A stretch of DNA of 43,914 bases, taken from assembly GCA_023245195.1 (NCBI GenBank), contig JAHFKU010000003.1, forward strand, positions 1-43,914, in the 5' to 3' direction. Origin of the DNA: Candidatus Staskawiczbacteria bacterium (GTDB lineage Bacteria > Patescibacteriota > Minisyncoccia > Minisyncoccales > Staskawiczbacteraceae). Positions within the stretch are counted from its first letter, which is position 1. Each line of letters starts with the position of its first letter. The notes below the pieces were generated by a model. It worked only from the letters and a program-made list of their open reading frames with translations. It made no database searches and was not told the origin of the DNA. Below are positions 15,703-36,657 of this stretch, one piece after another. A program made the position numbers and the translations under genes.

Positions 15703-15821
15703 AATTTTCAATTTCTAATTTTCAATTTTCATTAAATTTTTAATACACTAATTTTCAAATACGTTTAGAAATTAAAGCAATTAGATATTTAATAGAAATT
15801 AGAAATTATGAATTAGAAATT
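15703..15821 (+). repeat. Empty 7-nt-periodic fold-back element (four-helix-bundle subfamily) between rpmH and rnpA
   Basis: (aattttc/aatttct)n-attaaat..aaa tacg ttt..atttaat-(agaaatt)n; near-identical to the reverse complement of 36526..36657. Confidence 0.9.
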
Positions 15822-15829
15822 CAGGGAAG

Positions 15830-16168
15830 GTGTTGCCAAAACCAAACCGTTTAACCAAAAAAAAGGATTTTGATCTGGTCTTTAAAAAAGGGGAAAGCGT
15901 AAAAAACGGCTTTTTAATATTTAAAATGTTAAAAAGTAATTTGCCAGAAAGCCGTTTTGGATTTGTGGTGAGCCGCAAGGTTTCTGGCAAGGCGACGGTA
16001 AGAAATAAGGTTAAAAGAAGATTGCGAGACGCAATCTTTCTTAGATTAAAAGAATTGAAAGGGGTTATAGATGTTGTTGTTATCACGTTACCGGGAATTG
16101 AAAAAAAAGAGTTTTTAGAAATACAAAACATGGTGGGAGGCGGGCTTAAAAAGTTAAAAATAATATAG
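15830..16168 (+). CDS. rnpA: Ribonuclease P protein component
   Basis: RLTKKKDF, RFGFVVSRKV, KATVRNKVKRRLR. Confidence 0.97.
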   Translation: MLPKPNRLTKKKDFDLVFKKGESVKNGFLIFKMLKSNLPESRFGFVVSRKVSGKATVRNKVKRRLRDAIFLRLKELKGVIDVVVITLPGIEKKEFLEIQNMVGGGLKKLKII

Positions 16169-16332
16169 GGAGTAATCACGAATATACTAATACGTTCAAA
16201 TATACCAATCTTACAAATATACGAATACGAGATTGCTTTTGCGCCTGCGGGCGCCTCGCAATGACGGCGGCAAGATTTGTATATTTGTAAAATTCGTATA
16301 TTATCGTAAATTTGTATATTCGCGACTACTCC
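16169..16332. repeat. 8-9-nt-periodic fold-back element between rnpA and yidC with a nested AGATTGC..GCAATGAC repeat
   Basis: Basal stem ggagtaatcacgaatata/tatattcgcgactactcc; acgaatat/acaaatat units versus atttgtat/attcgtat; nested repeat 16230-16266. Confidence 0.85.
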
Positions 16333-16338
16333 AATTAA

Positions 16339-17052
16339 ATGTTTGGATTTATAGTTAATTTTTTTAAAATCTTCTTATACTTTCCGCTTTTTAATGCGCT
16401 GGTTTTAATATACGACTATTTTCCCGGGCACGACTTTGGCATAGCCATTATTGTTCTTACGATTATTATAAGAGTTATTATTTATCCCCTTTCGGTAAAA
16501 GCCCTACAATCCCAAAAAGCCCTTTCAAGCCTTCAACCTCAATTAAAAGAGATTCAGGAAAAATACAAAAACGACAAAGAAAAACAAGCCAAAGAAACCC
16601 TAGAACTGTATCGCAAAGAAAAAATCAACCCTTTTAGTGGGCTACTGTTGGCTTTAATCCAGCTTCCCATATTAATTGCCCTTTATAATGTGTTTTGGAA
16701 CGGCTTAAAGCCCGAACAGCTTAGTAATTTATATGGCTTTGTCGTAAATCCGGGGCATATTAATCCAGTATTTCTTGGTCTTGCAGATTTGTCTAAGCCA
16801 AACGTGATTTTTGCTATTTTGGCCGGTATTTTGCAGTTTTTCCAGACAAAAATGTTAACACCTAGCCCCACCAAGGGCTTGGCGGCCAATGACATGTCTT
16901 CGATGATGCAAAAGCAAATGCTGTACTTTTTCCCAATCATAACCATAGTCATTCTTTTAAAACTGCCTTCAGCGCTAGGATTGTACTGGATAGCAAGCGG
17001 AATATTTTCTATAATCCAGCAGTATTTCATCCTTAAAAAGAATAAAAAATAA
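16339..17052 (+). CDS. yidC: YidC/Oxa1 membrane protein insertase (short form)
   Basis: GIAIIVLTIIIR, LQPQLKEIQEKYK, NPFSG..LIQLPILIALY, PSALGLYW. Confidence 0.95.
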   Translation: MFGFIVNFFKIFLYFPLFNALVLIYDYFPGHDFGIAIIVLTIIIRVIIYPLSVKALQSQKALSSLQPQLKEIQEKYKNDKEKQAKETLELYRKEKINPFSGLLLALIQLPILIALYNVFWNGLKPEQLSNLYGFVVNPGHINPVFLGLADLSKPNVIFAILAGILQFFQTKMLTPSPTKGLAANDMSSMMQKQMLYFFPIITIVILLKLPSALGLYWIASGIFSIIQQYFILKKNKK

Positions 17053-17519
17053 TGGAGGAACAAGAATTAAAAACAATTAAAGAAACCATAGAAAAGTTCC
17101 TGCAGAAAATGACGGTGGATGTTTTGACGGTGGAATTAAACTCATCATTGGTAAACAATAAAGAATGTGTGAATGTGGATATTCACATAAAAGAGCCGCA
17201 GGTTTTAATTGGGCAAAGCGGCCAAACATTGTTTGAATTGGGGCGCCTGTTAAGGATTATTTTAAATAAAAAGCTCCAGAAAGATTTTTATGTGGATTTA
17301 GATATTAACGATTATAAAAAACAAAAATTATTGTATTTGAAAAAAATGGCGGCGGATTTGGCGCGCGAAGTGGTGGTAACCCAAAAAGAAAAAATATTGC
17401 CTCCCATGCCTTCTTATGAAAGAAGAATTATTCATAGCGAACTTGCCGGCCGGCAAGATATTATTACCCAAAGCCATGGGGAGGGGGTAGATAGGTCGGT
17501 GATTATTAGTCCCAAATAA
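17052..17519 (+). CDS. jag: Jag/EloR-like KH-R3H RNA-binding protein
   Basis: LIGQSGQTL (KH), PMPSYERRIIH (R3H); follows yidC. Confidence 0.88.
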   Translation: MEEQELKTIKETIEKFLQKMTVDVLTVELNSSLVNNKECVNVDIHIKEPQVLIGQSGQTLFELGRLLRIILNKKLQKDFYVDLDINDYKKQKLLYLKKMAADLAREVVVTQKEKILPPMPSYERRIIHSELAGRQDIITQSHGEGVDRSVIISPK

Positions 17520-17526
17520 TTTTTTG

Positions 17527-17644
17527 GTCATTGCGAGCGGCGGCCGTAAGGCCGCCGCAAGGCAATCTGCACACCGTCATTGCGAGACTCGTCCGCAGAC
17601 GAGGCGTGGCAATCTAGATTACTTCGTAAAAACTCGCAATGACG
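17527..17644. repeat. Cluster of three GTCATTGCGAG..GCAATCT palindromic units
   Basis: Units at 17527-17568, 17576-17615 and inverted 17616-17643; the first two carry different internal hairpins. Confidence 0.88.
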
Positions 17645-17660
17645 AATAATTATGAAATCC

Positions 17661-17694
17661 ATCCCAAATTACTACGATCGTAGTAATTTGGGAT
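17661..17694. repeat. 34-bp perfect palindrome
   Basis: atcccaaattactacga|tcgtagtaatttgggat. Confidence 0.92.
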
Positions 17695-17706
17695 AGAGAT
17701 GATGAC

Positions 17707-17740
17707 CAAAAAGACAAGCTTACTTAAGCTTGTCTTTTTG
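17707..17740. terminator. Bidirectional terminator-like hairpin
   Basis: caaaaagacaagctta-ct-taagcttgtctttttg between convergent genes. Confidence 0.7.
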
Positions 17741-17763
17741 TTTGTGCGAAACTTATCAAAGAT

Positions 17764-20700
17764 TTACGGTACGATCGGGAAAATGTCCATTCTGAATATT
17801 TTTCTATTTTGGTCTACAATGTCATAATTGGCTAAATCTTGTATTTTGCCTGGGGAAATATAGCATTGGGCACCATCAGGGAGCCCGTTTTTACTATAAA
17901 GAATGGTTAAAAAGTTGCCACTAGGCTCTATAGCTCGGGTGCATGGATAGGCAGCACCAGTGGGATCGCAATTTCTGTCTGCTAAACAAGCGTCACCGTG
18001 GGAAGAATTTGGAAAAGAACATATTCCACTGGTGGGACTAGTCCCTGGACCTAGTAATTGCACTTCTTTATTGCATTCACCTTTAATGCCATTAATACTG
18101 CACTCAGTATCTAGTTCGCAAGGTTTCTGTGCGGGAAGAATAACGCATTTTTTAGTTTCAGAACACCATCCAGATGGCGCGCCACAATCAGCATTGGTGC
18201 CATTAGCATTATTATCAACCGAACTGCAGGGTGTATTAGAGAAAATTGGTATTTTGTAAGCCGTTATACATTTTAGGGTTTTTTTATTGCAATAACCAGA
18301 ATTTTGAGTATTAGGAAGTTGCGCGCAAGTGTCTTTTCCTGCAGCCGCCTTATCTGTGCCATAGTATTTTGGGTCAGTTAACAAGTCATCAGGCCCACCA
18401 TTATATTTAAAATGTTCTCCGGGGACACCATTATTGTATTCCCCGTTCTCTGTCATATAATATCTGCCAATAAAGGCAAATTTTGGGCCAACTAGCCTAT
18501 TTCCTTGGACTCGTGGTTCGCCCTGTGTTGCTGGGCCACCATCTTCATATATGCTTACCCCACTTCCAGAAAAGTCTGAATTATTAGCTTCAGCGGATTT
18601 TGAATTCAATCCTTTTATAATATAAATTGACGTAGCGGGGAACTGTTCGCATTGGCTGGTGTTTCCAGTGCCACCTGATCCACCGCCTCCACTACTACCC
18701 GAACCACCACTGCCTCCTCCAGAACCACTGCCGCAATCTGCAGGACAATTTGTTGAATCTTCATCGGGGTAATCACATGTACCATCGCCACATGTTACAC
18801 CAGGAACATCTTCTGCCAATATTGCTCCATTAAATCCGCTTAATATTGATGCAGGGTACAAGACTGCACCCTGCTTCGCTTCACTTGCTAAAACGAGGGG
18901 CAGATTATTTTTTATGCTAACCTCATTGTTTGGAGCTTGTTCATTTTCGGGGTATAAGCTCGTGCCCTGGTTCGTAAATGGTAGGATTCCTAAAAATGAA
19001 GCCAGTGGAGGGTTTTGGTTATTAAATGGCAGGGCGCCAGTATCAATTATGCTACAAGGTTGATCAAGCCGGCATTCGTCAAGTTCGGCTACCCCCGGTC
19101 TTTTATTTGCAACTAACATACACCTATTACCCGAAATATCTGGATCTGTTGATGCCTTGCAAATGGTGTGGAAGTTTGGATTAGAATTAACTTGGCAATC
19201 CGGGAAATAAGTGCACTGGTCGGTACCTGGTCCAAATACTAAGTCGCACGTATGATCCATAAAATTACATTCACTATGAAGGTAACCTGTTCCACATCCT
19301 CCAGAGGAAGGATTGCAATATCCATATCCATGGTAACCAGCTAAACATTGACCATCGATGTCGCAAGAGAATCCGCAATCACTGGCGCTAGTACAAGCTA
19401 CTCCACCATTATTATTTCCAAGCCGACATTGATTAGTTGCAATGTCACAAGAATAACTAGTGGTAAATTGTTGTGGGCAATCAGTGTCAAATTCGCACCA
19501 GGGCAGTTGTGGGCCTACTGCGCCCGGAACACAGGTTCCAGCCAAACAATGAGATGTACTAGTATCTATTTGACCAGAACAAGTTTGCGCGTCACAGCTA
19601 GTTCCCGATAATCCAGGAACACATTTTTGTGTGCTGGTGTCACAAGTTATTCCTGTTTTATTTGAAAGGAAACAGGTTGCTGGATCGCAAGTAAGTCCGG
19701 GTAATCCAGGAACACATTGTTTTAAATTAGTATCACAGGTCATTCCCGATCCTACTACTGCAGTAGAACATTGTTGGGCATCACAAGTCAGCCCAGGTAA
19801 CCCAGGAACACATTGTTTCGTGCTAGCATTGCATGTTATTCCCCCTGCCACTGCAGTAGAACATTGTTGGGCATCACAAGTCAGTCCAGGTAATCCAAGA
19901 ACACATTGTTTTGTAGCGGTGTTACAGGTCATGCCTCCTGTTGGAGGTGGCGGCGGCGGTGGAACCGGGACATTGCAAGGGTCGCCGCTTTTTGAGGTGC
20001 TACTACAGCCGTCATTGGTGTATGAACTTGTTCCAGCGGGTCCGCAAATACCACCACTGCCACCCTTTGGCGCACTGCACTTAAAGCCAGTTGAGGGTGG
20101 TAGCTCACAAGGACTTCCTAGTAAGCATGGATATCCATTTTGGAAATAAAACTTGTCGGTAGTACATTGATTATTTGAGAAATTACAATAACCTTTAGGG
20201 CCATTGCAATCAGTCACTCCAGGAGTACATTTTATTCCACTAGTTCCAGTTTCCGAGCATTGAGAATATGGGTTAAATAGGCTTGTAGTAGTGCAATAGC
20301 TTTCGGGTTCGGGTGGTGTGCAGGCGGGATTGCCTATTCCACCATTCGCATTGTTATTGCTGAAGTTGCAAGGAATGCAGTCTTCAAGGGCGGGATCACA
20401 ACTTTCATATACGCATTGCTGGGTGTCGGGGTCGCAGTAGCCGCCGCATTCGGTATCGCTCGTGCAATCTGCGCCAGTGCCGTTGGGGCTGCAACTAGGT
20501 GTAGGGCTAAATTCATCGCATTTGCTACCGGCACAGTCGATATTGTTAGTGCAAGATTGTTCGCCAACACCATAAGGACTACAGGTGGGCTCAGGGGCAA
20601 AGGGGTCGCAGTGGGCGCCACTGTCGATATTGCAATCATCGTCGTTGTTGCAACTTATACAGTCTTCTGTTTCGGGATCACAAGTGGATTCCGCCTCGCA

Positions 20701-21981
20701 AGTATGACTTTCGGTGTCACAATAGCCTCCTCGATTGTCTGGTGGAAGGGGGCAGTCGTTTACATCTTTGCAGGGTTCGCCAGTACCTTCGGGTCCACAA
20801 AATGCGTTACCATTATCGTCCACACCACACTTAGAGGGCTCTTCACAACTACTACCGACGTTAGTGCAAGAAGCAAGTTCTGTATAAGATTTGCAGTGTC
20901 CGACGGTTTGGCTTTCTGCACTTGCACCATCGCAATAATAATCACTGCCACCACCACAGTCGCTGTGCTCAATGCAGTATTGACCAGTGTAATCTTGAAT
21001 ACATTTATTGTTTAGGCTATCGCAAACTCCGGAATTTGGTTGATCTATTGGTGGCAAAGTGTTGGTGGGTTTGCAACCAGGGCCGGTGATAGACACGTTA
21101 ATGCATTGGTCTTCGGCACTAAAATTATTAAATGGCTCACTGCAGGTTCCTTGATTATTTGGGTCGGCGGTTAAGACAAATCCATAATGAGGGTCATTGT
21201 CGCCGGCTCCATTAACAATTAAGGCTGAAGTTACTTTTCTTTCAAATTCTTTGGGCAGGGTGCCGGTGTTGGTGATGACTTCGGTGCTAATGCCAGTACA
21301 GCCCGCTCCTTTAAAAAGGTATACACCTGGCTGTTTATAGGCTGTTTTGTAAGAGTATGTGCCAAAGATGTCTGTTGATTTTCCGCACTGCAATGTCACA
21401 ACGTCTGCATCTGGATCATTGTCATCTAGGCCTGGCAGCGAATATCTATAAACTAAAAGATCCGGGCTGTTTGTCGGGTTTTTGCAGATATAAACAAGTT
21501 TATTAAATCCTTCTAGTAAATTTGAGGTATCGGCCTGGTAAGGAGGGGCTACAATAAAATTATCAGAGCTATTAACCAAATAAAGTCCCGCTCCTACGGT
21601 TGTTGTGAGTGCGGGCTGGTTTGGATCTATAAGTTGGGGGTTAATCGTACTTAACAGAGTTATCGAAAACATCAAAAGTACAATGCCTAAAATGGAGCCG
21701 AAAATTCTTTCTCGCGCTGCGCCTTGCGAGGCCGGATTTCCCGCTGATGCCAAAAGCGTAATGCCGGCAATGACGATAGAAAGTACGCCTACGATTCCGG
21801 CAAATCCCACGGCTAAGTAAAAGAAGTAGGCGATAAAATCAGGTAATGTGGAATTTTTGTCTAGTTTAATGCCGCCAATAGTCGGATAGTCATTTTCAAG
21901 CGCGAAAACCGTTTGACTAACAGTCAAAAACAATACAAGAACAGCCAGAAATAATAGCGGGTATTTGAGTTTTTTGGGCAT
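17764..21981 (-). CDS. 1405-aa surface protein: signal peptide, TrbC/VirB2-like pilin domain and long Cys-rich repeat region
   Basis: N-terminal VFA signal, two TMs with IAGITLLASAGNP..ARERIFGSILG (CPR pilin-like), dozens of C-x(5-6)-C modules, CGDGTC..CPADC motif, Gly/Ser and Pro linkers. Confidence 0.8.
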   Translation of the reverse strand: MPKKLKYPLLFLAVLVLFLTVSQTVFALENDYPTIGGIKLDKNSTLPDFIAYFFYLAVGFAGIVGVLSIVIAGITLLASAGNPASQGAARERIFGSILGIVLLMFSITLLSTINPQLIDPNQPALTTTVGAGLYLVNSSDNFIVAPPYQADTSNLLEGFNKLVYICKNPTNSPDLLVYRYSLPGLDDNDPDADVVTLQCGKSTDIFGTYSYKTAYKQPGVYLFKGAGCTGISTEVITNTGTLPKEFERKVTSALIVNGAGDNDPHYGFVLTADPNNQGTCSEPFNNFSAEDQCINVSITGPGCKPTNTLPPIDQPNSGVCDSLNNKCIQDYTGQYCIEHSDCGGGSDYYCDGASAESQTVGHCKSYTELASCTNVGSSCEEPSKCGVDDNGNAFCGPEGTGEPCKDVNDCPLPPDNRGGYCDTESHTCEAESTCDPETEDCISCNNDDDCNIDSGAHCDPFAPEPTCSPYGVGEQSCTNNIDCAGSKCDEFSPTPSCSPNGTGADCTSDTECGGYCDPDTQQCVYESCDPALEDCIPCNFSNNNANGGIGNPACTPPEPESYCTTTSLFNPYSQCSETGTSGIKCTPGVTDCNGPKGYCNFSNNQCTTDKFYFQNGYPCLLGSPCELPPSTGFKCSAPKGGSGGICGPAGTSSYTNDGCSSTSKSGDPCNVPVPPPPPPPTGGMTCNTATKQCVLGLPGLTCDAQQCSTAVAGGITCNASTKQCVPGLPGLTCDAQQCSTAVVGSGMTCDTNLKQCVPGLPGLTCDPATCFLSNKTGITCDTSTQKCVPGLSGTSCDAQTCSGQIDTSTSHCLAGTCVPGAVGPQLPWCEFDTDCPQQFTTSYSCDIATNQCRLGNNNGGVACTSASDCGFSCDIDGQCLAGYHGYGYCNPSSGGCGTGYLHSECNFMDHTCDLVFGPGTDQCTYFPDCQVNSNPNFHTICKASTDPDISGNRCMLVANKRPGVAELDECRLDQPCSIIDTGALPFNNQNPPLASFLGILPFTNQGTSLYPENEQAPNNEVSIKNNLPLVLASEAKQGAVLYPASILSGFNGAILAEDVPGVTCGDGTCDYPDEDSTNCPADCGSGSGGGSGGSGSSGGGGSGGTGNTSQCEQFPATSIYIIKGLNSKSAEANNSDFSGSGVSIYEDGGPATQGEPRVQGNRLVGPKFAFIGRYYMTENGEYNNGVPGEHFKYNGGPDDLLTDPKYYGTDKAAAGKDTCAQLPNTQNSGYCNKKTLKCITAYKIPIFSNTPCSSVDNNANGTNADCGAPSGWCSETKKCVILPAQKPCELDTECSINGIKGECNKEVQLLGPGTSPTSGICSFPNSSHGDACLADRNCDPTGAAYPCTRAIEPSGNFLTILYSKNGLPDGAQCYISPGKIQDLANYDIVDQNRKIFRMDIFPIVP
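19573..19938 (-). repeat. Four ~30-codon intragenic tandem repeats
   Basis: G(M/I)TC(N/D)xxxKQCV(P/L)GLPGLTCDxxxC four times, with DNA-level similarity. Confidence 0.9.
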
Positions 21982-22049
21982 AACGCTAATTTAAAATTAA
22001 ATTAGTTAATAATAGCATAATTCATTTTCTAATAAGATGTGGATAACTC

Positions 22050-22478
22050 TTATTTTTTAGTTGTTGCCGGCTTGGTTGAAGTTTTCGCTGACCCTTCTTT
22101 TGGTGATTCTTTAGTTCCCTCTTCTGCAGGCTTTGAACTGCTTTCTTGGGTTGCTGTTCCTCCACCATAACCTCTGGTGTATACCCAGGTGACAAAAAAC
22201 CCGTCAATTGCCCATGTAATTAATGTGGTAAAAATTCCGCCGTCAAACCAAATTTCAAGAATACCCATGCTCAAAGTGACTATATAGCAAGACCCGGCGA
22301 TGGTCAGCATTAACATCCCTTCCGGTCCCATTAAATTTCCTTTCATGGTCTTCCAAACAAGTATAATATTTCCGGGCCATAAAAAACCAATGCCTGGCGT
22401 CCATTGGGGCAATGACCAGCCAAGTCTTTTTATTATTCCTCTTGCGACTTTTTGTATTGTGCCCTGTGATTCTGCCAT
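22050..22478 (-). CDS. Hypothetical membrane protein in T4SS-like cluster (start likely ATG 22478)
   Basis: Hydrophobic helices plus charged tail; the longer TTG-start extension is encoded by a GC palindrome. Confidence 0.6.
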   Translation of the reverse strand: MAESQGTIQKVARGIIKRLGWSLPQWTPGIGFLWPGNIILVWKTMKGNLMGPEGMLMLTIAGSCYIVTLSMGILEIWFDGGIFTTLITWAIDGFFVTWVYTRGYGGGTATQESSSKPAEEGTKESPKEGSAKTSTKPATTKK

Positions 22479-22501
22479 GTTCTCGAATTTTAAATTATCA
22501 A

Positions 22502-22527
22502 GCCGCGCGCCCCGCGGGGCGCGCGGC
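22502..22527. repeat. GC palindrome centred on CCCG|CGGG
   Basis: gccgcgcgccccg|cggggcgcgcggc. Confidence 0.9.
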
Positions 22528-22532
22528 AAAAA

Positions 22533-24341: not shown

Positions 24342-24348
24342 GTTTGTT

Positions 24349-24816
24349 AATTTCTAATTTTCAATTTCTAATTTCTATTAAATGTATAATTTCTAATTTT
24401 CAAAAACTTTCTTGGCATCAATAGTATTAGTAATTTTTTGGAATATAAGATGAAATTCATGAGCTTCCTGCCAAAGATTTCTTATAGGCTCTTTTAGTTC
24501 TGTGTTATTTTTAGCTAACATTCTTAACCAATATTTTGTCTCATTCGCCTCTTTCTTTGAAATATATATTTTATTTCTAAAGTCCTTTTTAGAACTTGAA
24601 GCGTTTGCTTCGTAGTAATTTGCACCAACAGACGTGGCAGCTCTCGTCAATTGGATAATAATATTTCTATTAATATCATCCCTTTTTATATTTTTAACAA
24701 ATTCTATGATATTCTCGGCAAAGACTGCGGATCTTTCTTCTAGGTCGTAAGCTTTTTTGTTTTGAAATTGGTTCATTTAAAATTTAATAGAAATTAGAAA
24801 TTAGAAATTGAAAATT
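24349..24816 (-). mobile_element. Candidate cassette: four-helix-bundle gene enclosed by inverted 7-nt-periodic arms
   Basis: Arms 24349-24407 (aatttct/aattttc)n and 24759-24816 (agaaatt)n overlap the stop and start of the gene. Mobility is inferred. Confidence 0.6.
24393..24776 (-). CDS. Four helix bundle protein (23S rRNA intervening-sequence protein/Avd-like family)
   Basis: YDLEER, QLTRAATSVGANYYEA, SKKDF, ISKKEANETKYWL. Confidence 0.93.
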   Translation of the reverse strand: MNQFQNKKAYDLEERSAVFAENIIEFVKNIKRDDINRNIIIQLTRAATSVGANYYEANASSSKKDFRNKIYISKKEANETKYWLRMLAKNNTELKEPIRNLWQEAHEFHLIFQKITNTIDAKKVFEN

Positions 24817-24821
24817 CGTAG

Positions 24822-27351: not shown

Positions 27352-27372
27352 GTGTTTTGCTTGTGAATTCAA

Positions 27373-27411: not shown

Positions 27412-27432
27412 AGTAGCACATTTTAATTTATG

Positions 27433-27597: not shown

Positions 27598-27696
27598 ATT
27601 GATAGTAACTTGGACGTTCCAAGTGGCCCTTTGACAATTTGCCTGTTAGAATCCGCTTGTTGCGGCATTAAAACGGGTATTCTAAGAGGAGTGAGG

Positions 27697-28860: not shown

Positions 28861-28865
28861 TAGAT

Positions 28866-28906
28866 AGAAAGGGTTAGATCTTTATAGATTTAAACCCTCT
28901 TTTTTT
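28866..28906. terminator. Terminator-like hairpin between convergent genes
   Basis: agggtt..atct..agat..aaccct followed by a T tract. Confidence 0.5.
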
Positions 28907-28912
28907 GCAAAA

Positions 28913-29596
28913 TTATTCAATCGGTTCTTTATATGGATCTGGTTTTGTTTCTTCTTCGGGTGTTTTACTATCCTCATTTTTTTTGGAGAATTTATTTTTT
29001 TCCTGTGTAGTTATATTTTTTCCTTCTTTTTCCATGTTCTCTGCATTTTTTTCTACATTCGTAATGGGTGTTATTTTAAGGTGCGCCAATTCTGAATCGT
29101 TCTTTTTTATTCCATTATAATCTTGTATTTCGCTAGGCTTTTTATTTATCGTAGATATGGGATTATTTTTGTTAGTCATTATTTTTTCTATTAATTCTTT
29201 TGTTTCACTTTCTATTTCTGATTTACCGTCTTCAATGCCAAAAACTTTTTTAGAAATTTCTTCTCTAAAAACTTTGTCATTAAATTTTTCATCGGGGTAG
29301 ATTAATAATAATGGCAAGAGTTTGTTTTTTATGTCTTCTACTATTTTCTTTATAGTATATTCGGGAGCTTTGAGATGTTTTTGCAAAAGTTCAATTAAAT
29401 TCTTCTCGGGAATTAGGCCATTTGCAATAGTAATTGTAGCGTCCCTTATAATTTTCGCTTTTGACTCCACATCCTTGTCGAGTTCATTAAAGAAATCTTC
29501 GTCACTTTCTTCGAAGCCGTTATTCTTTAAAATATCAGAAAAAACAGATTCCGCATTTTGATCGAATATTACTCTTATTTTTTTTTGTTCTTTCAT
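28913..29596 (-). CDS. Hypothetical protein with C-terminal DPYKEPIE motif
   Basis: 227-aa ORF downstream of the VirB6-like gene; no recognised domain. Confidence 0.7.
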   Translation of the reverse strand: MKEQKKIRVIFDQNAESVFSDILKNNGFEESDEDFFNELDKDVESKAKIIRDATITIANGLIPEKNLIELLQKHLKAPEYTIKKIVEDIKNKLLPLLLIYPDEKFNDKVFREEISKKVFGIEDGKSEIESETKELIEKIMTNKNNPISTINKKPSEIQDYNGIKKNDSELAHLKITPITNVEKNAENMEKEGKNITTQEKNKFSKKNEDSKTPEEETKPDPYKEPIE

Positions 29597-29609
29597 TGTT
29601 TGTGATTTA

Positions 29610-31589
29610 TTATGGTAGGTCTCTAATTTCTTTTCTTATATTTTTTAACCTATTTACTTCTGCTTTATTGCCAGCAGCTTTCGCAGCAGCAATCTGATCT
29701 TTTAATGCTTTTCTAATTGCAGGGTCTCTAAGAGCATTGATATGTGCGCGATCTGCTGTCTTGAATTTTCTTGCTATATTTGCGGTAAATGATTTACTTG
29801 TTACAAGGTCAGCTGTAATATCTTCTTTATCGATATTTCTTATTTGCTCACCAGACATGCTTGGTAGGCTTGCCTCAAGCTGTTCTTGTCTTGCTGCTGC
29901 TTTTGCTTGAGCCAATGTAAGTCTTGGATTTGTTGCTCGAATTCTATCAATAGTCTTTTTATCAAATTCCGCATAACGATAATCTGCTTCTGCAAACTTG
30001 CTAGTGTCAATACCATGCTTTTCTGCATTGTTTATAGCTTCTTGGCGCTTTGATGGATCGATCTTGCTTAGTTTCTTTCTGTCAGACAACACCTTAGTGT
30101 ATGCCGCCCTTTCAGCAGCGCTTTTTCCATTTTGTGCTCTATCTGCAATAACATCAGAATTTTTCTCAGCTTCTGCCAATTCTGTATAAGGTTTGATTTT
30201 TGCTGCTTGTCTATCCTGAAAGTTCTTATTTGCGGTTCCTGCTTTGGTTAGCCCAGCTTTTTCTCCAAATCTTCCTATGCCATATCTTATTTGACCATAT
30301 AATTCTCCAAAACTATCTTTAAATCCTTGTGCCCCAACTATGTTACCAGCGACGCCGCCAGCTGCTTTGCCCGTTGCAAGTCCAGCCTTAAGCGATCCTT
30401 TGGCAAGACCTTTTGCTGCTCCAATAGCTTTGCTATTTATCCATCTACTGGCTTTAAGCGCTCCGCTAGCCCCCATGGCCGATATCTGCATGGAAGCAAT
30501 AAATCCCATGACCAAAAACATCCCCGGTACGAGAAAAGCAAGGATTCCGCCAATGGCCTTATCGGGACCATTAAGTAATTCCCTAAATCCTGGATAAGTC
30601 CCAATGCCAGCGTGCACTTGGTTTCCGATATAAATAAACATGGCACCAATTCCTCCAATAAAACACCATTGTAAAAAGTTATTGATCCACTTGTCAAAAA
30701 TCATGCTTTTTGTTTGGGGCAAAACAACAGAGGCAAAAGCCAAAGGGGATAAAATAACTAAAATCCAAAGGGCGAAGATCCTGAATAAAAATAGAAAGGC
30801 AAAAAGAAAAGAAATGGCGCCTTTCATGGCAAAAAAGAATGTAGTGCCGGCTGCTCTTGCGATAGAATCAAGGGTGGATGGATTGCTACCTGCCTTTCCA
30901 AGCAACTCTTTGAAGGTTTCTAGTTCGTTTTTAGATATAAAATCTGCCACGGTAGTACCGCCACTTTTTTGGCCGCCATACAAAGCATATTTCATAAAAA
31001 TATTTGAAGCGTCAATAACTATTCCGCAGATTACCAAAGAAAAATTAATTAAAAGGGCGGCGATGATTAACTTGACCAGAGCCTTTTTTCTGTCTCCAAA
31101 CATTTCTAAACGCAAAATCATGGCTAGCGCTATTGCAATAAGCGAAATAACAATAACCATATTAGCTAGGCCTCTTACGATAGGCCATCCTATATTCACG
31201 GCGCCATTTTTTGTGTATTCGGTATTGCTTATTGCTAGAGTTATGACGGCGTTAAGTAGCGTTGTCCCAAGAAAAGAAAAAAATCCACTAAGACCAATAG
31301 GAATAGATAATAGGGCACTAACAACAGCATCTCCAGTTGCCCCTGCAACTTCGCTCACCTTGTCTTTTGCCGACTGACTAAGGTTGTTATATGCTTTGCT
31401 TCCTTGTTTATAGGCTCCGTAGGGAGGAACTACTATTTGGAGGCCTGCGTCAGCTATACTGGTAATAGTTTCCAATCCATAATCTGCTTTGGCGATGGTT
31501 GGAGCAACAATTCCCCCCAACATAAAAACCAAAACCACCAAAGAGATGATCTTTTTTTCTTTAAAAATATGGGATAAAAAATGGGGCAC
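29610..31589 (-). CDS. VirB6/TrbL-like polytopic membrane protein
   Basis: GWPIVRGLAN, LIIAALLINFSL..IDASN, RIFALWILVILSPLAF..LP..W; Ala/Gly-rich and helical C-terminus. Confidence 0.8.
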   Translation of the reverse strand: MPHFLSHIFKEKKIISLVVLVFMLGGIVAPTIAKADYGLETITSIADAGLQIVVPPYGAYKQGSKAYNNLSQSAKDKVSEVAGATGDAVVSALLSIPIGLSGFFSFLGTTLLNAVITLAISNTEYTKNGAVNIGWPIVRGLANMVIVISLIAIALAMILRLEMFGDRKKALVKLIIAALLINFSLVICGIVIDASNIFMKYALYGGQKSGGTTVADFISKNELETFKELLGKAGSNPSTLDSIARAAGTTFFFAMKGAISFLFAFLFLFRIFALWILVILSPLAFASVVLPQTKSMIFDKWINNFLQWCFIGGIGAMFIYIGNQVHAGIGTYPGFRELLNGPDKAIGGILAFLVPGMFLVMGFIASMQISAMGASGALKASRWINSKAIGAAKGLAKGSLKAGLATGKAAGGVAGNIVGAQGFKDSFGELYGQIRYGIGRFGEKAGLTKAGTANKNFQDRQAAKIKPYTELAEAEKNSDVIADRAQNGKSAAERAAYTKVLSDRKKLSKIDPSKRQEAINNAEKHGIDTSKFAEADYRYAEFDKKTIDRIRATNPRLTLAQAKAAARQEQLEASLPSMSGEQIRNIDKEDITADLVTSKSFTANIARKFKTADRAHINALRDPAIRKALKDQIAAAKAAGNKAEVNRLKNIRKEIRDLP

Positions 31590-31595
31590 TGGTTT

Positions 31596-31702
31596 AATTT
31601 GAAATTTACAATTTGAAATTTGAAATCAATTTGAAATGTGTAAATTTGAAATTTGAAAAATTTGAGACTGTTTCTGTCCCGCGCGCCCGCGGGCGCGGGG
31701 GA
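31596..31702. repeat. Single 7-nt-periodic arm (aatttga)n plus CCCG|CGGG palindrome
   Basis: aatttgaaatttacaatttgaaatttgaaatcaatttga...; tccc[g]cgcgcccg|cgggcgcg[g]ggga 31677-31702. Confidence 0.85.
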
Positions 31703-31797
31703 TCACACGGATTCTAAATTCAGTCATTGTACCATGTTTTGCATTTTTGGTAATAAATTTTGGCTGTTGATAACTTTTTGTTAAAAACGTGGCATAC

Positions 31798-31833
31798 AAA
31801 CAAGCGGGTTCGCTTTCGCGAACCCACTTGTTT
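31798..31833 (-). terminator. Terminator downstream of hepT
   Basis: aaacaagcgggttcgc-tttc-gcgaacccacttgttt. Confidence 0.65.
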
Positions 31834-31852
31834 AATCTTTTTAAGATTTCAT

Positions 31853-32185
31853 TTAGATAGAAATTTTCTGCAATTCCTCTTTTAATGGTGGTAGATCAAT
31901 GATAATAGTATTCCAAACTACATCTAGATTAATATCAAAATAATTATGAATAGCTTTGTCTCGGAAACCGGCAATTTCTTTCCATGGCAAATTTACCTTT
32001 TCTTTTAAGTCATCAGAAACTTTCTTCGAAACTTCTCCAATCAGAGTAAGTTGCATAATTACCGCACTTTGGACCAAAGAGTTTTTGGAGAAATTATCCT
32101 TATCAATTCCATCCACAAACGATTCAATTTTTCTGATTGAATCAAGTATTTGATCTACATATACTTTATCATTCTTTATCGTCAT
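31853..32185 (-). CDS. HepT-like (DUF86) HEPN RNase toxin
   Basis: IGEVSK, PWKEIAGFRDKAIHNYFDIN (Rx4HxY). Confidence 0.93.
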   Translation of the reverse strand: MTIKNDKVYVDQILDSIRKIESFVDGIDKDNFSKNSLVQSAVIMQLTLIGEVSKKVSDDLKEKVNLPWKEIAGFRDKAIHNYFDINLDVVWNTIIIDLPPLKEELQKISI

Positions 32186-32462
32186 ATATATTTTTTAAAT
32201 CTGGCAAAATATAAGGTTTTATAAATTTATTTACGCCACCTTCTGTTACTAAGTCAACTTTTCGTCCAAGCACTTTTTCCATTTCAGTTACTAATTCCAC
32301 AAATCCAACTAGTCCCATAGGTTTGCCAAGTCTTACCATAACATCAACATCGCTTTCTGGATTATCGTCGCCCCTAGATACAGATCCAAAAACCGCGGCA
32401 TGCTTAATGCCATAATGACGAAATATGGGAGCTAATTTAGTTTGTAAATCTTTTACGCTCAT
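32169..32462 (-). CDS. MntA-like minimal nucleotidyltransferase antitoxin
   Basis: VFGSVSRGDDNPESDVDVMV (GSx10DxD), LGRKVDLVT. Confidence 0.93.
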   Translation of the reverse strand: MSVKDLQTKLAPIFRHYGIKHAAVFGSVSRGDDNPESDVDVMVRLGKPMGLVGFVELVTEMEKVLGRKVDLVTEGGVNKFIKPYILPDLKNIYDDKE

Positions 32463-32468
32463 ATGGTA

Positions 32469-32497
32469 ATTGTAAAATAGAAATACGGAAGATGCAA
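32469..32497 (-). promoter_or_regulatory. sigma70 promoter 6 nt upstream of the MNT ATG (leaderless)
   Basis: Minus strand TTGCAT-N17-TACAAT-taccat-ATG. Confidence 0.65.
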
Positions 32498-32541
32498 GAG
32501 GGCCAACCTATACATTTTAGCCCATTTATACGGTTTCTGCA

Positions 32542-33474
32542 CTAGAGGCTGTTTGTTAAATTTATCCAATTTTGAATGGAGAGGGTTTCTGCTCTTTGAT
32601 TGGATTTTATGTCGTTTTTTGAAAGCCAGACTTCAACTTCTTTCCGGTCTTTTTTTAGAATCACCGAAAAGTTATTTGCTAGTTGTTTTCGGGGATGGGA
32701 AAACCCGGCTTTTACGATTTGAAAGAATTTTTCGACAAATGCAGGATTGTTAGATTGCCACAGCGCGACGCCCGCGGGCGCCGCGCTTCGCAATGACGAA
32801 TTAGAATATGGCGTTATTTTTATAATTGCCGAATCAACTTTTGGCGAGGGCCAGAACTTTTCTTTTCCAACATAAGAAATAATTTCTGCTTTGGCATAAA
32901 ATTGCACCGAAACTGCTAGAATGCTCATATGGGGCGGCTTTGCACAGATTCTTTGCGCCACCTCTTTTTGGACCATTAGCACCATGGATTCGGGAGGATT
33001 GCCTGACTCTAAAAACATTCTAATTAAGGGCGAGGTCAAATAATAAGGTATATTGGCTACGATTTTATATTTTTTAGGTAATTGAGTATTAGATTGCTTC
33101 GCTTTGCTCGCAATGACGATATTTTTCGTTAATTGGTCATTGGCTATTGGGATTTGGGGTTTCATTTTAAGAATATCTCCATGAATTACATTTATATTCT
33201 TAAAATGCGCAAGGGTTTCTTTTAGGATTTCTACCATATTCTTGTCCTTTTCTATAGCAAGGACAGTTTTTGCCAAAGGTGCTAATGCTTGGGTTAGGGT
33301 GCCTATGCCTGGGCCTACTTCTAAAATAGTATCTGTGGGCTTGAGATCTGCGGCTTCAACGATTTTTTTGAGAGTTGCTTGGTCTATTAAAAAATTCTGG
33401 CCCAACCCTTTTAGGGGCTTGGTACTGTGTTTAGCTAGTAATTCTTTAATGGTTTTTGGAGAAGTTAAATCCAT
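32542..33474 (-). CDS. rsmA: 16S rRNA m6,2A dimethyltransferase with repeat-derived insertions
   Basis: LGQNFL, LEVGPGIGTLT, VANIPYYLTS, MVQKEVAQR, PSPKVDSA, RAETLS. Confidence 0.97.
   Translation of the reverse strand: MDLTSPKTIKELLAKHSTKPLKGLGQNFLIDQATLKKIVEAADLKPTDTILEVGPGIGTLTQALAPLAKTVLAIEKDKNMVEILKETLAHFKNINVIHGDILKMKPQIPIANDQLTKNIVIASKAKQSNTQLPKKYKIVANIPYYLTSPLIRMFLESGNPPESMVLMVQKEVAQRICAKPPHMSILAVSVQFYAKAEIISYVGKEKFWPSPKVDSAIIKITPYSNSSLRSAAPAGVALWQSNNPAFVEKFFQIVKAGFSHPRKQLANNFSVILKKDRKEVEVWLSKNDIKSNQRAETLSIQNWINLTNSL
32752..32798. repeat. AGATTGC..GCAATGAC repeat with nested CCCG|CGGG palindrome, in-frame in rsmA
   Basis: Encodes SSLRSAAPAGVALWQSN. Confidence 0.88.
33091..33160. repeat. 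Second AGATTGC..GCAATGAC repeat plus a 4x7-nt tract, in-frame in rsmA
   Basis: 33091-33118 encodes VIASKAKQS; ttggtca ttggcta ttgggat ttggggt at 33133-33160. Confidence 0.85.
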
Positions 33475-33477
33475 AAT

Positions 33478-33578
33478 AGTTAAACTCTAAACCCAAAACT
33501 CTAAATCCTAAACAAATCCAAAATTCTAAATACCAAATCACAAACACGTTTAGATAGAGTTTAGGATTTAGAATTTCT
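33478..33578. repeat. 7-nt-periodic fold-back element upstream of rsmA
   Basis: (ctaaatc/caaaact)n versus (tttagga/tttagaa)n. Confidence 0.75.
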
Positions 33579-33611
33579 TTTTATTATGCTAATCATAGCA
33601 TAATAAAAGGC

Positions 33612-33653
33612 TGTGGATAACTGCTTGACTGACCTGCTTAAAATTGCTAAACT
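33612..33653 (+). promoter_or_regulatory. DnaA box adjacent to a sigma70 promoter of the LysM/M23 gene
   Basis: tgtggataa 33612-33620; TTGACT-N17-TAAACT with TGn. Confidence 0.6.
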
Positions 33654-33665
33654 TAAAGCAACACC

Positions 33666-34892
33666 TTGCTTACATTTTTTAATAGAAAATTCACCCGGTT
33701 AAACAGCTTTTACCTTAAGGCAAAAGCTAAAATCCAAAGGATTTTGTTTAACTGGGTAAACAGCATCTATGAAAAGGGATTCTCAAAAAACCCCTTCTTT
33801 TGTTTTTTACGGCGGAAAACAAAACTTCTCTTTGGTAAAGAGGCTCTGCGCCTGAAAAATGGCAATTTCTATTTTGGATTGATGTCAATTGTCTTGCTGG
33901 GGTCGCTGTTTATCAGTTCTGATAGCTTGGCCCAAGACACTTATGCCAACAACAGTAATGTGATCTTTTTTAATTCATTTTTCAAAAATACAGATAATTT
34001 AACCAATAACGACCTCTTTTTCAGCCAAAACAAAGAATTGGCCCTTGAAACCCCGGATTTAAAGATTATCCAAGATAATTCTATTTATGCCGTCAGCACC
34101 CCCTCTATTTTAACCACCCAGACGTTGGGAGACATTTTTGGCGGATCAGACGAACAGAGGAAAGAAATTGTAGAATACCAGGTGCAAATTGGCGATACAA
34201 TTGCCAAGCTTGCCAATGATTACAATATTACGCCCGAAACCATTGCTTCTGCCAATGGCATTTCAAAAAATGCGGCCCTTAAGGTTGGCCAAACGATTGT
34301 TATTTTACCCGTTTCCGGAGTGGTGCACATTGTAAAACCCGGAGATGTGATAAGCCAAATTGCTAAAACCTATAAAGCGAAAGCCGATGATATTGTCGCC
34401 TTTAATAATCTTGCTGGAGAGGGCGATATTTTTATTGGAGATTCTTTGATTATTCCAAATGGAGTGATGCCGGCAAAACCCGTGCCGTCTTTCATCACGG
34501 TTCCCTTGGCTGATAATTTCTTTATCTATCCTGCAGAGGGTCTTATTACCCAAGGTTTGCACTATTACAATGGCGTGGATTTGGCAAACAAAGTTGGAAC
34601 GCCTATTTATGCCGCCGCTTCTGGCGTGGTTCAAAGAGCAGTAGCTGACGGATTTTACCACGGAGGCATGGGAAACCATATTTCCATTTTACATTCCAAT
34701 GGCACGGTTACCTATTATGGCCACCTTCAGACGGTTTTTGTTAAATCCGGCGATAGAGTTGGCACGGGAGATAGAATTGGATTAATGGGCCAAACCGGCC
34801 GGGCAACTGGCCCCCATGTGCACTTTGAGGTTATTGGAGCCCAAAATCCTTTGGCCAAGTTCTTGGTTGGATCGGTGATTAAATATAAATAA
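33666..34892 (+). CDS. LysM-LysM-M23 peptidoglycan peptidase
   Basis: Two LysM repeats (YQVQIGDT.., HIVKPGD..), M23 motifs GVDLA, YYGHL, TGPHVHFEV. Start uncertain. Confidence 0.92.
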   Translation: MLTFFNRKFTRLNSFYLKAKAKIQRILFNWVNSIYEKGFSKNPFFCFLRRKTKLLFGKEALRLKNGNFYFGLMSIVLLGSLFISSDSLAQDTYANNSNVIFFNSFFKNTDNLTNNDLFFSQNKELALETPDLKIIQDNSIYAVSTPSILTTQTLGDIFGGSDEQRKEIVEYQVQIGDTIAKLANDYNITPETIASANGISKNAALKVGQTIVILPVSGVVHIVKPGDVISQIAKTYKAKADDIVAFNNLAGEGDIFIGDSLIIPNGVMPAKPVPSFITVPLADNFFIYPAEGLITQGLHYYNGVDLANKVGTPIYAAASGVVQRAVADGFYHGGMGNHISILHSNGTVTYYGHLQTVFVKSGDRVGTGDRIGLMGQTGRATGPHVHFEVIGAQNPLAKFLVGSVIKYK

Positions 34893-34903
34893 AAATTCTT
34901 GTT

Positions 34904-34940
34904 AAAAAACAGCGGCGCCCGAAGGCGCCGCTGTTTTTTT
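34904..34940. terminator. Bidirectional terminator
   Basis: aaaaaacagcggcgcc-cgaa-ggcgccgctgtttttt. Confidence 0.85.
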
Positions 34941-34986
34941 GTAATCCGCGTAAATTCAGCGTAATAATCAGCGTTGTATTAGCGGA

Positions 34987-36519
34987 TTATCTTGCATACT
35001 CCACCACCCTGTTTTCTCTGATAACCGTTACCTTAATTTCTCCTGGATATTTTAATTCTTCTTCAATGTTGGCGGCGATTTGGCGGGCCATTTTTGAAAC
35101 GCCCAAATCATCTACTTTGTCAGCTTTCACAAATACTCTAATTTCTCTACCAGCCTGAATAGCATAAGCTTTTTCTACCCCTTCAAATTTATTAGCAATG
35201 CTTTCCAACGCACTTAATCGTTGCAGATAGTTTTCCAAGGTGTCTTTACGGGCTCCCGGGCGCGAAGCCGAAATAGAATCAGCCACAATCACAATAGCGC
35301 CTTCCAGTGAATCCACCGGAAAATCTCCGTGGTGGCTTCTCATGGCATGGATAATTTCTTCTTTTTCACCGAATTTTTCCAAAATCTTAATACCAATATC
35401 AATGTGGCTTCCTTCCATTTGCTGGTCAAGCGCCTTTCCAATATCATGAAATAATCCTGCTCGCTTGGCGACTGGCGCATTAGCTCCTATTTCTTCAGCA
35501 ATCGTTTCGGCAATTAAGGCTACTTCCATGGAATGTTGAAGTACGTTTTGGCCGTAGCTGGTCCGATAGTATAATCTGCCCAAAATCTGCACTAGCTTTT
35601 CGTTAACTCCCAAGATATTCATGTCATACAGCGTTTTTTCTCCGGCGTCTTTGATGACTTTGGAAATTTCTTGCTTGGCTTCTTCTACTTTTTCTTCAAT
35701 TTTGGCAGGCTGGATTCGGCCATCCTGAATTAATTTATCCAAAGCCATTTTGGCAATCTGGCGCCGCACGGGATTAAAGCAGGAAATAACGACTGAATCG
35801 GGCGTATCATCAACAATCAATTCAACGCCCGTGATTTTTTCGAAAGCCTTAATATTACGTCCCTCTTTGCCGATGATTCGGCCCTTAATATCTTCACTGG
35901 CAAGGTGAAGAGTAGTCGTGGAAAGCTCTAGCGTATGATTTACCGCGCATTTTTGGATAGCGAGCGTGACAATTTCACGAGCTTTGGTGGCCAAAGCGTC
36001 CTGCCCGGCCTGTTCTACTTTTCTCATCCTTTCCAAAATGTCTTTTTCGGAGTCTTTTTCTACTAAACTCAATAATTCTTTTTTAGCGTCTTCCCGCGAA
36101 AGATTGGCGACTTTTTCGAGCTTGGTTTCAGCTTCAAGGCGCAATTTGTCTAGATCTTCTTTAACCGTTTTTAGTTTTTCTACGTTTTTGCCTAACTCAT
36201 CTTCTTTTTTCTCAAAAGCGCCGATTTTTTCTTCCAGTAATTTTTCTCGATCTAAAATAAGCTGCTGGGCTTTTAAAAATTCCCTTCTTCGTTCATCAAT
36301 TTCTTTTTGGGATTCGGCCAGAATTTTTGAAGACTGGGTTTTGGCATCTTTGACCAATTTTTCAGTTTCTTCTTTGGTTTCCTGAACCTTTTTTACCAGT
36401 TTTGCTTCCAGTGAGCCGGCCCGCTGCTTGGCCAGTGATTGGCGGGTGTAATAGCCGATAATGCACCCCAGCGCTAATGATATAAATCCAGCGATAGCGA
36501 TAATAATGATTTGATCCAT
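34987..36519 (-). CDS. rny: Ribonuclease Y
   Basis: TM, coiled coil, KH (KGRIIGKEGRNI), HD (RTSYGQNVLQH..HDIGK), AIQAGREIRV. Confidence 0.98.
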   Translation of the reverse strand: MDQIIIIAIAGFISLALGCIIGYYTRQSLAKQRAGSLEAKLVKKVQETKEETEKLVKDAKTQSSKILAESQKEIDERRREFLKAQQLILDREKLLEEKIGAFEKKEDELGKNVEKLKTVKEDLDKLRLEAETKLEKVANLSREDAKKELLSLVEKDSEKDILERMRKVEQAGQDALATKAREIVTLAIQKCAVNHTLELSTTTLHLASEDIKGRIIGKEGRNIKAFEKITGVELIVDDTPDSVVISCFNPVRRQIAKMALDKLIQDGRIQPAKIEEKVEEAKQEISKVIKDAGEKTLYDMNILGVNEKLVQILGRLYYRTSYGQNVLQHSMEVALIAETIAEEIGANAPVAKRAGLFHDIGKALDQQMEGSHIDIGIKILEKFGEKEEIIHAMRSHHGDFPVDSLEGAIVIVADSISASRPGARKDTLENYLQRLSALESIANKFEGVEKAYAIQAGREIRVFVKADKVDDLGVSKMARQIAANIEEELKYPGEIKVTVIRENRVVEYAR

Positions 36520-36525
36520 GTTCGT

Positions 36526-36657
36526 GAATTTCTAATTCTTAATTTCTAATTTCTATTAAATATCTAATCGCTTTAATTTCCAAACACCATGGTTTTAGAA
36601 ATTAGCAGGATTAAAAATTTAATGAAAATTGAAAATTAGAAATTGAAAATTTAATAA
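36526..36657 (-). repeat. Empty 7-nt-periodic fold-back element (four-helix-bundle subfamily) upstream of rny
   Basis: Reverse complement aligns closely with 15698..15822. Confidence 0.9.

Follow-up and report, generated by a model that had tools for sequence, protein, structure and literature searches.

The window analyzed here is one whole contig of 43,914 nucleotides (JAHFKU010000003.1) from a groundwater bacterium, Candidatus Staskawiczbacteria bacterium, whose genome (GCA_023245195.1; G000 below) comprises 787 kb in 41 contigs and is 95% complete. It contains two hairpins with arms built of 7-nt units (heptads): copy A (15703..15821, plus strand), in the rpmH-rnpA gap, and copy B (36527..36651, minus strand), in the clpP-rny gap. 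Both are members of a dispersed family, and this type of element is present in the genome in three states, being empty, carrying a four-helix-bundle gene (loaded), or inserted in a loop of the 23S rRNA. A and B are interpreted here, with moderate confidence, as copies without an open reading frame (ORF) of a dispersed heptad-armed element that resembles the intervening sequences (IVSs) of rRNA or the miniature inverted-repeat transposable elements (MITEs), being tolerated in transcribed spacers and probably processed at the RNA level.

Copies A and B and their heptad family

Copy A fills the gap between rpmH (ribosomal protein L34; 15578..15697, plus strand), whose stop codon is 5 nt ahead of it, and rnpA (RNase P protein; 15830..16168, plus strand), whose GTG start is 8 nt past it. 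Its left arm (15703-15731) and its right arm (15793-15821), both given on the plus strand, consist of 4 heptads each, and the core between them is not repetitive and forms an inner hairpin with a UACG loop. Copy B has clpP (36771..37376, minus strand) upstream and rny, the gene for RNase Y (34987..36519, minus strand), downstream, and it ends 7 nt ahead of the rny start codon (36519). By blastn, A (15695-15828, plus strand) and the opposite strand of B are 88% identical over 133 nt (E = 1.7e-34), versus 70% when both are compared on the same strand, and in the pairwise alignment the main difference is at the apical loop, where B has about 7 extra bases. The RNA of copy A has a predicted folding energy of -19.5 kcal/mol (z = -2.6; 1 of 200 dinucleotide shuffles equally good) and the minus-strand RNA of copy B one of -31.8 kcal/mol (z = -5.1; 0 of 200). 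A preliminary description of this stretch had presented the two as almost exact reverse complements, different mainly around the loop, folding as long hairpins, the first one capped by UACG, and both in sense orientation. All of this agrees with the present data: the cap is found in the predicted fold of A, and each copy is co-directional with its flanking genes, A with rpmH and rnpA on the plus strand and B with clpP and rny on the minus strand.

The same description spoke of two hairpins. Both are real, but the genome holds 22 loci of this family (family 1), 16 of them full length, as found by nhmmer with a profile from 12 copies. The search with a covariance model, which had been proposed as a check, detected family 1 in 15 of the 26 genomes of the genus (E <= 1e-6), and a plain DNA search gave matches in 32 of 41 relatives; these genomes are bins assembled from metagenomes, in which the count of repeats at contig ends is too low. 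One copy in the congener G013 is 90% identical to copy A, the RnpA proteins of the two genomes being just 53% identical. Family-1 copies differ in the number of heptads, have a non-repeat core of about 50 nt in common with 80-90% identity, and are more conserved in the right arm than in the left. The shared ancestry claimed for A and B, as opposed to independent slippage, is supported by a dispersed family with core and heptads in common.

Family 1 is part of a wider class. The genome contains 136 tracts of period 7, with 4587 nt in total and a mean length of 33.7 nt (the minimum of the detector being 28 nt), and the same detector set to periods 5, 6, 8, 9, 10, and 11 found 13, 2, 2, 12, 1, and 0 tracts. 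Most of the period-7 tracts (103 of 136) are outside ORFs, the latter having been called with a crude script. The tracts pair into 34 hairpins, with arms at most 160 nt apart, which belong to several heptad families; in one large family, family 2 (AATTTGA/AATTTAC), the arms are perfectly complementary. Furthermore, a pattern of three AAATT cores at 7-nt spacing occurs 115 times in this genome and from 0 to 182 times in 25 congeners, and the reversed control occurs 0-8 times.

Within family 1, the left-arm heptads are mostly AATTTTC or AATTTCT and the right-arm ones AGAAATT, so that five Watson-Crick pairs form together with one U.G pair and a C/A position that stays unpaired. Compensatory changes were found in 2 of the 39 predicted pairs among 12 copies. 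This covariation is scarce because the AATT cores hardly vary. The pairing is supported instead by the fact that different heptad families all keep complementary arms.

The loaded copy and the elements in rRNA and between tRNA genes

A third copy of family 1, at 24349..24818 (minus strand), is loaded. From its left arm (24818-24782) the order is as follows: heptads, the ATG at once, an ORF of 127 codons (24393..24776, minus strand), and the heptads of the right arm (24399-24349), which end 7 nt ahead of the ATG of the next gene (24341). The cargo protein, of 127 aa, matches PF05635, "23S rRNA intervening sequence protein" (E = 3e-17), and TIGR02436, "four helix bundle protein" (E = 3e-22), and its closest solved relative is 2RLD. 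Four empty copies align to the loaded one in two pieces, reaching about 16-20 nt into the 5' end of the ORF and about 20 nt into its 3' end, and the part of the empty copies that matches these first and last 20 nt or so of the ORF is their inner hairpin. On this alignment, the empty form looks like an internal-deletion derivative of the loaded form; alternatively, the ORF may have been placed exactly in the apical loop of an empty element. The gene downstream of the loaded element (22533-24341, minus strand) encodes a TraG/VirB4-like P-loop ATPase (PF19044).

The association between this protein family and heptad arms extends beyond one locus. The genome has three PF05635 genes, the third of which runs off a contig end, and the family is present in 25 of the 26 genus genomes with up to 9 copies. 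The flanks of such genes were compared for complementarity between the upstream and downstream sides, using an ungapped, conservative score and 20 shuffles per locus, and the loci sampled were the best-scoring matches, not a random draw. In the genus, 20 of 30 loci scored at least 17, the highest shuffle score being 13. In a wider sample of Patescibacteria, PF05635 was found in 75 of 151 genomes, and among 30 loci from 30 genomes, 25 scored above all 20 shuffles and 8 reached 17; a period-7 tract flanks the gene in 21 of these loci and a period-8 tract in two.

Moreover, a protein search in plasmids returned 27 records, mostly from Nostoc and other cyanobacteria. Eight of these loci, from Cyanobacteriota, Chloroflexota, and Bacteroidota, were analyzed: all eight exceeded their shuffles, the margin being 1-2 points in two cases; 4 reached 17, and 7 showed period 7. 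Clear inverted heptamer arrays were seen in Planktothrix, two Nostoc strains, N. punctiforme, and a Chloroflexota plasmid. In these plasmids the four-helix-bundle gene separates cas2 from cas1 in Nostoc and Anabaena, drmD (DISARM) from pglX (BREX) in Planktothrix, an RND adaptor gene from the permease gene in Chondrinema, and a helicase gene from a methylase gene in Chlorohelix, most of these genes being flanked on each side by inverted heptamer arrays. Across the 26 genus genomes, the number of AAATT-type heptads correlates with that of PF05635 genes (Spearman 0.57, p = 0.002, uncorrected for kinship). A role of the cargo as Avd, the accessory protein of diversity-generating retroelements, whose gene adjoins a reverse transcriptase and template/variable repeats, was also considered and rejected, since no reverse transcriptase match (PF00078) was obtained in this 95%-complete genome.

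The third state is found in rRNA. On contig C27 (about 1250-1460), the 23S rRNA gene carries a family-2 heptad hairpin of about 180 nt in a loop, at position 1218/1219 of the Rfam large subunit (LSU) model. The loop belongs to the hairpin at positions 1203-1226 of the bacterial LSU model, which we take to be helix 45 from the E. coli sequence. A second insertion of about 24 nt is located at model position 1152/1153 of the same rRNA. Heptad elements are also found among tRNA genes: on contig C41 (6600-7470), two tRNA-Met genes enclose a PF05635 gene that has arms of another heptad family, and the spacer from tRNA-Met to tRNA-Asp contains an empty heptad hairpin. Orthologous versions of this tRNA arrangement occur in G002 and G009.

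rRNA IVSs have complementary borders that form a stem-loop, and in several genera RNase III excises them; some of them carry an S23p ORF, their distribution is sporadic, and they have been proposed to be former mobile elements whose ORF served mobility (PMC4990558, in excerpt). The three classical sites described there are helices 9, 25, and 45. A, B, and the family consensus have such complementary borders with the corresponding stem-loop, and the copy at 24349-24818 has the optional S23p/PF05635 ORF in its loop. With respect to the site, A and B themselves are located between protein genes and not in a 23S loop (helices 9, 25, or 45), and none of the 30 PF05635 loci of the genus is in an rRNA gene, a few of them adjoining tRNAs or RNase P RNA. 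The genome also encodes RNase III (C34:8785-9177).

Turnover, gene starts, and alternative explanations

The sites of A and B could be compared across the genus. In 23 genus genomes, the rpmH-rnpA gap measures 0-17 nt in 11, contains a heptad hairpin (94-156 nt) in 8, and has something else in 4. The hairpins mostly have visibly different heptads, the one in G018 resembling family 1, and the gaps of at least 60 nt all (10 of 10) fold beyond their shuffles, with z from -2.8 to -9.7. In a set of loci collected around DnaA relatives, in which some genomes overlap the genus set, 26 of 35 gaps are at most 20 nt long, so the short gap is taken as the common and probably ancestral state.

At the clpP-rny site, 24 loci were inspected by eye: a heptad hairpin of various families is present in 13, ending about 7-9 nt ahead of the rny ATG, and absent in 11. 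In G000 and G024 the hairpin at this site is of family 1. A small hairpin with a T-run, terminator-like by eye, follows clpP in 23 of the 23 loci with clpP (of the 24). In the window it is the first of two small genus-conserved hairpins between clpP and copy B (36672..36731, minus strand). A AAAAAGTCTTAA motif is found 3' of the two hairpins in many of the genus loci with clpP, and it may mark the rny promoter region.

On a tree of Rny proteins, the members of a clade of seven genomes (support 100/96) have a hairpin at each site, except for G009, with none at either, and G005, with one at the rny site only; outside this clade, the hairpin states are scattered. This distribution needs several gains or losses. 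G009 has no AAATT heptad match and both its gaps are empty, though it is nested in the hairpin-rich clade (91/80); a PF05635 gene is nonetheless present there in one copy, flanked by arms of a different heptad type. Within the genus, given intergenic sites have thus acquired, lost, or exchanged elements on the time-scale of species, and the elements therefore behave like miniature mobile DNA.

Public contigs from four DNA runs of one groundwater study, compared with 15200-35199, break at heptad arms. The joints at those breaks are other copies of the family, and they are uninformative on insertion polymorphism. No RNA run was found to contain this DNA. In public contigs of the same study, the rnpA-yidC gap (16181-16320 in the window), which has repeats of period 17-18 and 8, shows length variants: some contigs have 43-45 nt replaced, and another carries an additional 8-nt unit. 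Another kind of repeat in the window is a 93-nt tandem repeat (19684-19911; 2.4 copies, 82% matches) inside an ORF of 1405 aa (17764-21981, minus strand).

Under the preferred interpretation, a heptad element would be transcribed within a host operon or leader, the arms of the transcript would zip into a long A-U helix, and a double-strand RNase, possibly the RNase III encoded in this genome, would cut the helix out or through it, as in rRNA IVSs. Such RNA processing would account for insertions being tolerated among essential genes, between tRNAs, and in rRNA. A function specific to the rnpA or rny locus is made unlikely by the common core, the number of copies, the similarity across species, and the pattern of occupancy at the two orthologous sites. 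The data establish that the copies form a family, how they are built, that orthologous sites turn over, that the cargo gene goes with the arms, and that one heptad hairpin is inserted in rRNA.

Several points weigh against this interpretation. Transcription, RNA processing, selfishness, and a role of the cargo are steps that we infer. Neither a transposase partner nor a target-site duplication nor an excision footprint was found, the flanks of a 26-copy alignment having been inspected by eye, and the cargo protein is no known recombinase. A third of the genus PF05635 loci (10 of 30) score 8-14, below 17. The clade of seven genomes could represent one old insertion followed by sequence replacement, in which case what looks like mobility could be in part turnover in place or gene conversion. 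Three genomes have a family-1 copy ahead of apparently the same gene, which fits long retention and perhaps function. Finally, the conservation of the right arm and the orientation bias described below are unexpected for a purely neutral palindrome.

These last points lead to an alternative that is judged unlikely: the elements, or at least their right arms, could be cis-regulatory leaders, in which A-rich NNAAATT heptads close to the start codon would be either a promoter for a nearly leaderless mRNA or a landing site for ribosomes or proteins that is independent of Shine-Dalgarno pairing, with the left arm modulating it by pairing. An ORF starts 0-7 nt past one end in 15 of the 16 full-length family-1 copies, and a start codon is at most 12 nt away in 22 of 23 family-1 loci from relatives. 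Among all heptad tracts, 43 of 136 end at most 20 nt ahead of a start codon, and 47 of 136 begin at most 20 nt past a stop codon, the elements occupying the gap from the stop codon to the following start codon. Few genes of this genome have a Shine-Dalgarno motif, GGAG preceding 40 of 536 long ORFs, and a weak peak of TANNNT at position -12 relative to start codons suggests that mRNAs may lack a leader or have a short one. Right-arm-type arrays are even found alone before starts, such as the TCAAATT-type array without partner arm at 31596..31665 (minus strand), which ends 6 nt ahead of a GTG start (31589). The retention before apparently the same gene in three genomes fits a leader as well, and TAACTGA heptamers occupy the same position in marine Beggiatoaceae (MacGregor 2015, PMC4679880, in excerpt).

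The start codon of rnpA also points in this direction. It is GTG or TTG in 7 of the 8 genus genomes with a heptad hairpin upstream and ATG in 11 of the 11 with a gap of at most 17 nt (Fisher p = 1.6e-4, among kin that are not independent). G021, which has a plain 63-nt hairpin upstream of rnpA, also uses GTG.

The orientation of the elements is biased as well. Of the 16 full-length copies in this genome, 11 are oriented as A and B (sense), 4 are antisense, and 1 is between convergent genes; the 23 loci of relatives include 17 sense, 4-5 antisense, and 1 neither. The strand-bias check proposed earlier thus gave a bias towards sense when both sets are pooled (28:9, binomial p = 0.003, with some loci orthologous and the events not independent), but the orientation is not fixed, and this genome alone shows 11:4 (p = 0.12).

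On the other hand, the gaps before insertion measured only 0-30 nt, and therefore any insertion ends up beside a start codon. About half of the related species have no element at the same essential genes, some elements occupy places that call for no leader (tRNA spacers, gaps of convergent genes, and the 23S rRNA), and 4 of 15 copies in the genome are antisense. Promoter and terminator scans gave nothing above shuffle expectation in A or B, with no consensus promoter scored, and the whole window had no Rfam family at gathering score.

The window has further heptad hairpins. A family-2 hairpin with AATTTGA/AATTTAC arms (8048..8209, plus strand) ends 5 nt ahead of an ATG at 8215. This ATG is the likely start of an ORF that was listed with the coordinates 8127-8930 and whose initial in-frame ATG is inside the hairpin. 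A family-2-like hairpin is located at 9614..9757 (plus strand), one of a further family (AAACTCT/AAATCCT arms) at 33482..33576 (plus strand) between divergent genes, and a heptad-like hairpin at 37363..37458 (minus strand) in the tig-clpP gap.

The preliminary description had viewed the hairpins as a sense-strand RNA of defined shape, a periodically bulged helix that would act as a protein-binding lattice or would escape double-strand RNases. The pairing on which it relied is confirmed: the U.G pair is found at the sixth position of the outermost heptad in 11 of 12 aligned copies, and in 35 copies from 16 genomes the commonest 1x1 mismatch is C.A with the C on the 5' arm (47 of 100 versus 2 A.C). 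The U.G pair with the unpaired C/A also recurs in family-1 copies of other species, and arms of about 4-5 heptads, as the mean tract length suggests, would suit a repeated binding unit. The mismatch every 7 nt holds in part, being strict in some copies, such as B, but only 20 of 71 intervals in the 35 copies measure 6-8 nt, and family 2, the largest sister family, has perfect arms. Selection of the sense strand finds no support. A tandem U.G and C.A reads as C.A and U.G on the other strand, and therefore neither strand is favored, the counts of wobbles and mismatches being equal on both. The sense RNA is the more stable one in 9 of 23 heptad hairpins between co-directional genes, and the rpmH-rnpA gaps of ten genomes show no consistent strand difference in folding energy. 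Avoidance of double-strand RNases is also at odds with the closest known relatives, the rRNA IVSs, which are cut by RNase III (PMC4990558, in excerpt). This view is thus regarded as very doubtful.

Even less credit can be given to a mobilization in trans by a Y1 transposase, of the IS200-like type or of the type that accompanies repetitive extragenic palindromic (REP) sequences (RAYT). REPINs, the hairpin-forming REP elements, are inverted doublets that form hairpins in intergenic space (PMC3116915, in excerpt), and the genome has a Y1 ORF of 263 aa (PF01797, at C32:68751-68984). However, PF01797 was not found in 10 of the 26 genus genomes, including the heptad-rich G024, G007, and G022, and G009, with zero AAATT heptads, has 2 matches. 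The number of Y1 genes and the heptad load show a correlation of 0.17, which is not significant, and the nearest 5.8 kb around the Y1 gene are free of period-7 tracts. The Y1 transposase was therefore rejected as mobilizer, as its gene neither tracks the elements in the genus nor is flanked by them.

The last alternative, that the hairpins are independent slippage products, palindromic by chance, or ordinary intrinsic terminators, is close to refuted: in many bacteria, long simple repeats most often have heptanucleotide units, with polymerase slippage as the proposed origin (Mrazek 2007, cited in PMC4679880, in excerpt), and unit numbers do vary among copies, but the shared non-repeat core, the size of the family, the identity across species, and the occupancy of two sites make slippage untenable, and the stems are A-U rather than G+C-rich, lack a T-run, lead up to a start codon, and in the case of A lie within a pair of genes 0-17 nt apart in 11 of 23 relatives, the terminator-like hairpin of the genus being the one after clpP.

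Relation to known repeats and significance

The preferred interpretation, that of an IVS-like or MITE-like element, rests on likeness to known systems that is partial in each case. As in the rRNA IVSs of Leptospira, Coxiella, Salmonella, and others, complementary termini form a stem-loop, a PF05635-family ORF is in the loop of some copies and others are ORF-less, and the distribution among relatives is sporadic; moreover, a heptad hairpin of this genome is in a 23S loop and the host encodes RNase III. Unlike them, A and B are in mRNA spacers, the arms are made of 7-nt units, and each genome has tens of copies. RNase III is known to cut IVSs and would presumably cut the heptad hairpins.

With MITEs and REPINs the elements share being short, intergenic, multi-copy, and hairpin-forming, with terminal inverted repeats and with a presence that varies at orthologous sites, and the empty copies resemble internal-deletion derivatives of an ORF-bearing copy. 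In contrast, the ORF of the longer form encodes a four-helix-bundle protein with no known recombinase activity, and there is no transposase partner, the Y1 gene failing to track the elements.

The short tandemly repeated repetitive (STRR) sequences of cyanobacteria are also tandem 7-nt units, of many sequences, in non-coding DNA, as the arms described here are, and the four-helix-bundle genes of cyanobacterial plasmids sit inside inverted heptamer arrays. STRR arrays lengthen a helix of the cyanobacterial RNase P RNA. The works of Mazel (1990), Vioque (1997), and Elhai (2008) are the classic ones on STRR and small dispersed repeats. STRRs differ in having been described as direct tandem arrays for fingerprinting and in a different phylum, and no description of them as paired arms of a dispersed hairpin with a cargo gene was found in the literature searched.

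The TAACTGA repeats of marine Beggiatoaceae are similar in position. They are heptamer arrays in forward orientation that mostly end a few nt upstream of starts, before genes without Shine-Dalgarno sequences, essential ones included, they have stops in all three frames, and a role in translation has been proposed for them (MacGregor 2015, PMC4679880, in excerpt). The right arm of the heptad elements also consists of forward repeats that end a few nt before starts, with a different unit and with arms that are inverted pairs, whereas the TAACTGA repeats are direct, with one unit dominant and one inverted set among 170. The excerpts of that source mention no cargo gene or rRNA insertion.

Hairpin repeats, IVSs, STRRs, and start-proximal heptamers are thus already known. 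Apparently unpublished are dispersed hairpins whose two arms are heptad arrays, the regular flanking of TIGR02436/PF05635 genes by such arms, and the ORF-less derivatives in operon spacers. No publication that links heptad arms to TIGR02436/PF05635 genes was found in a search that left most subscription journals outside, and a 2026 preprint about the mining of non-coding elements mentions neither four-helix-bundle proteins, intervening sequences, and heptamers nor Patescibacteria and 23S rRNA.

A broader idea, put forward tentatively and thought improbable as it stands, is that heptad arms and the PF05635/TIGR02436 (Avd-like) protein form one widespread, undescribed mobile cassette, in which the protein would recognize arms of 4-5 heptads and aid spread or excision, the empty copies of the A and B type being non-autonomous. 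The solved relatives of the PF05635 protein are pentamers. If the idea were true, it would tie together rRNA IVSs with an S23p ORF, the STRR heptamers of cyanobacteria, and start-proximal heptamer arrays, and it would account for the genes wedged between cas2 and cas1, between DISARM and BREX, and between RND subunits in other phyla.

The practical consequences concern annotation and assembly, given that gene starts are mis-called across heptad hairpins (8127 versus 8215, for instance) and that public contigs of the same metagenomes break at heptad elements. For the biology of the group, Patescibacteria genomes are very small, and yet 136 period-7 tracts (4.6 kb) are present in this one, some of them in the most conserved operons and in rRNA. 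The finding bears on gene expression in organisms that are mostly devoid of Shine-Dalgarno sites. Furthermore, if the link between heptad arms and four-helix-bundle proteins is causal, it would make testable the roles of S23p/Avd-like proteins outside retroelements as well as those of heptamer repeats.

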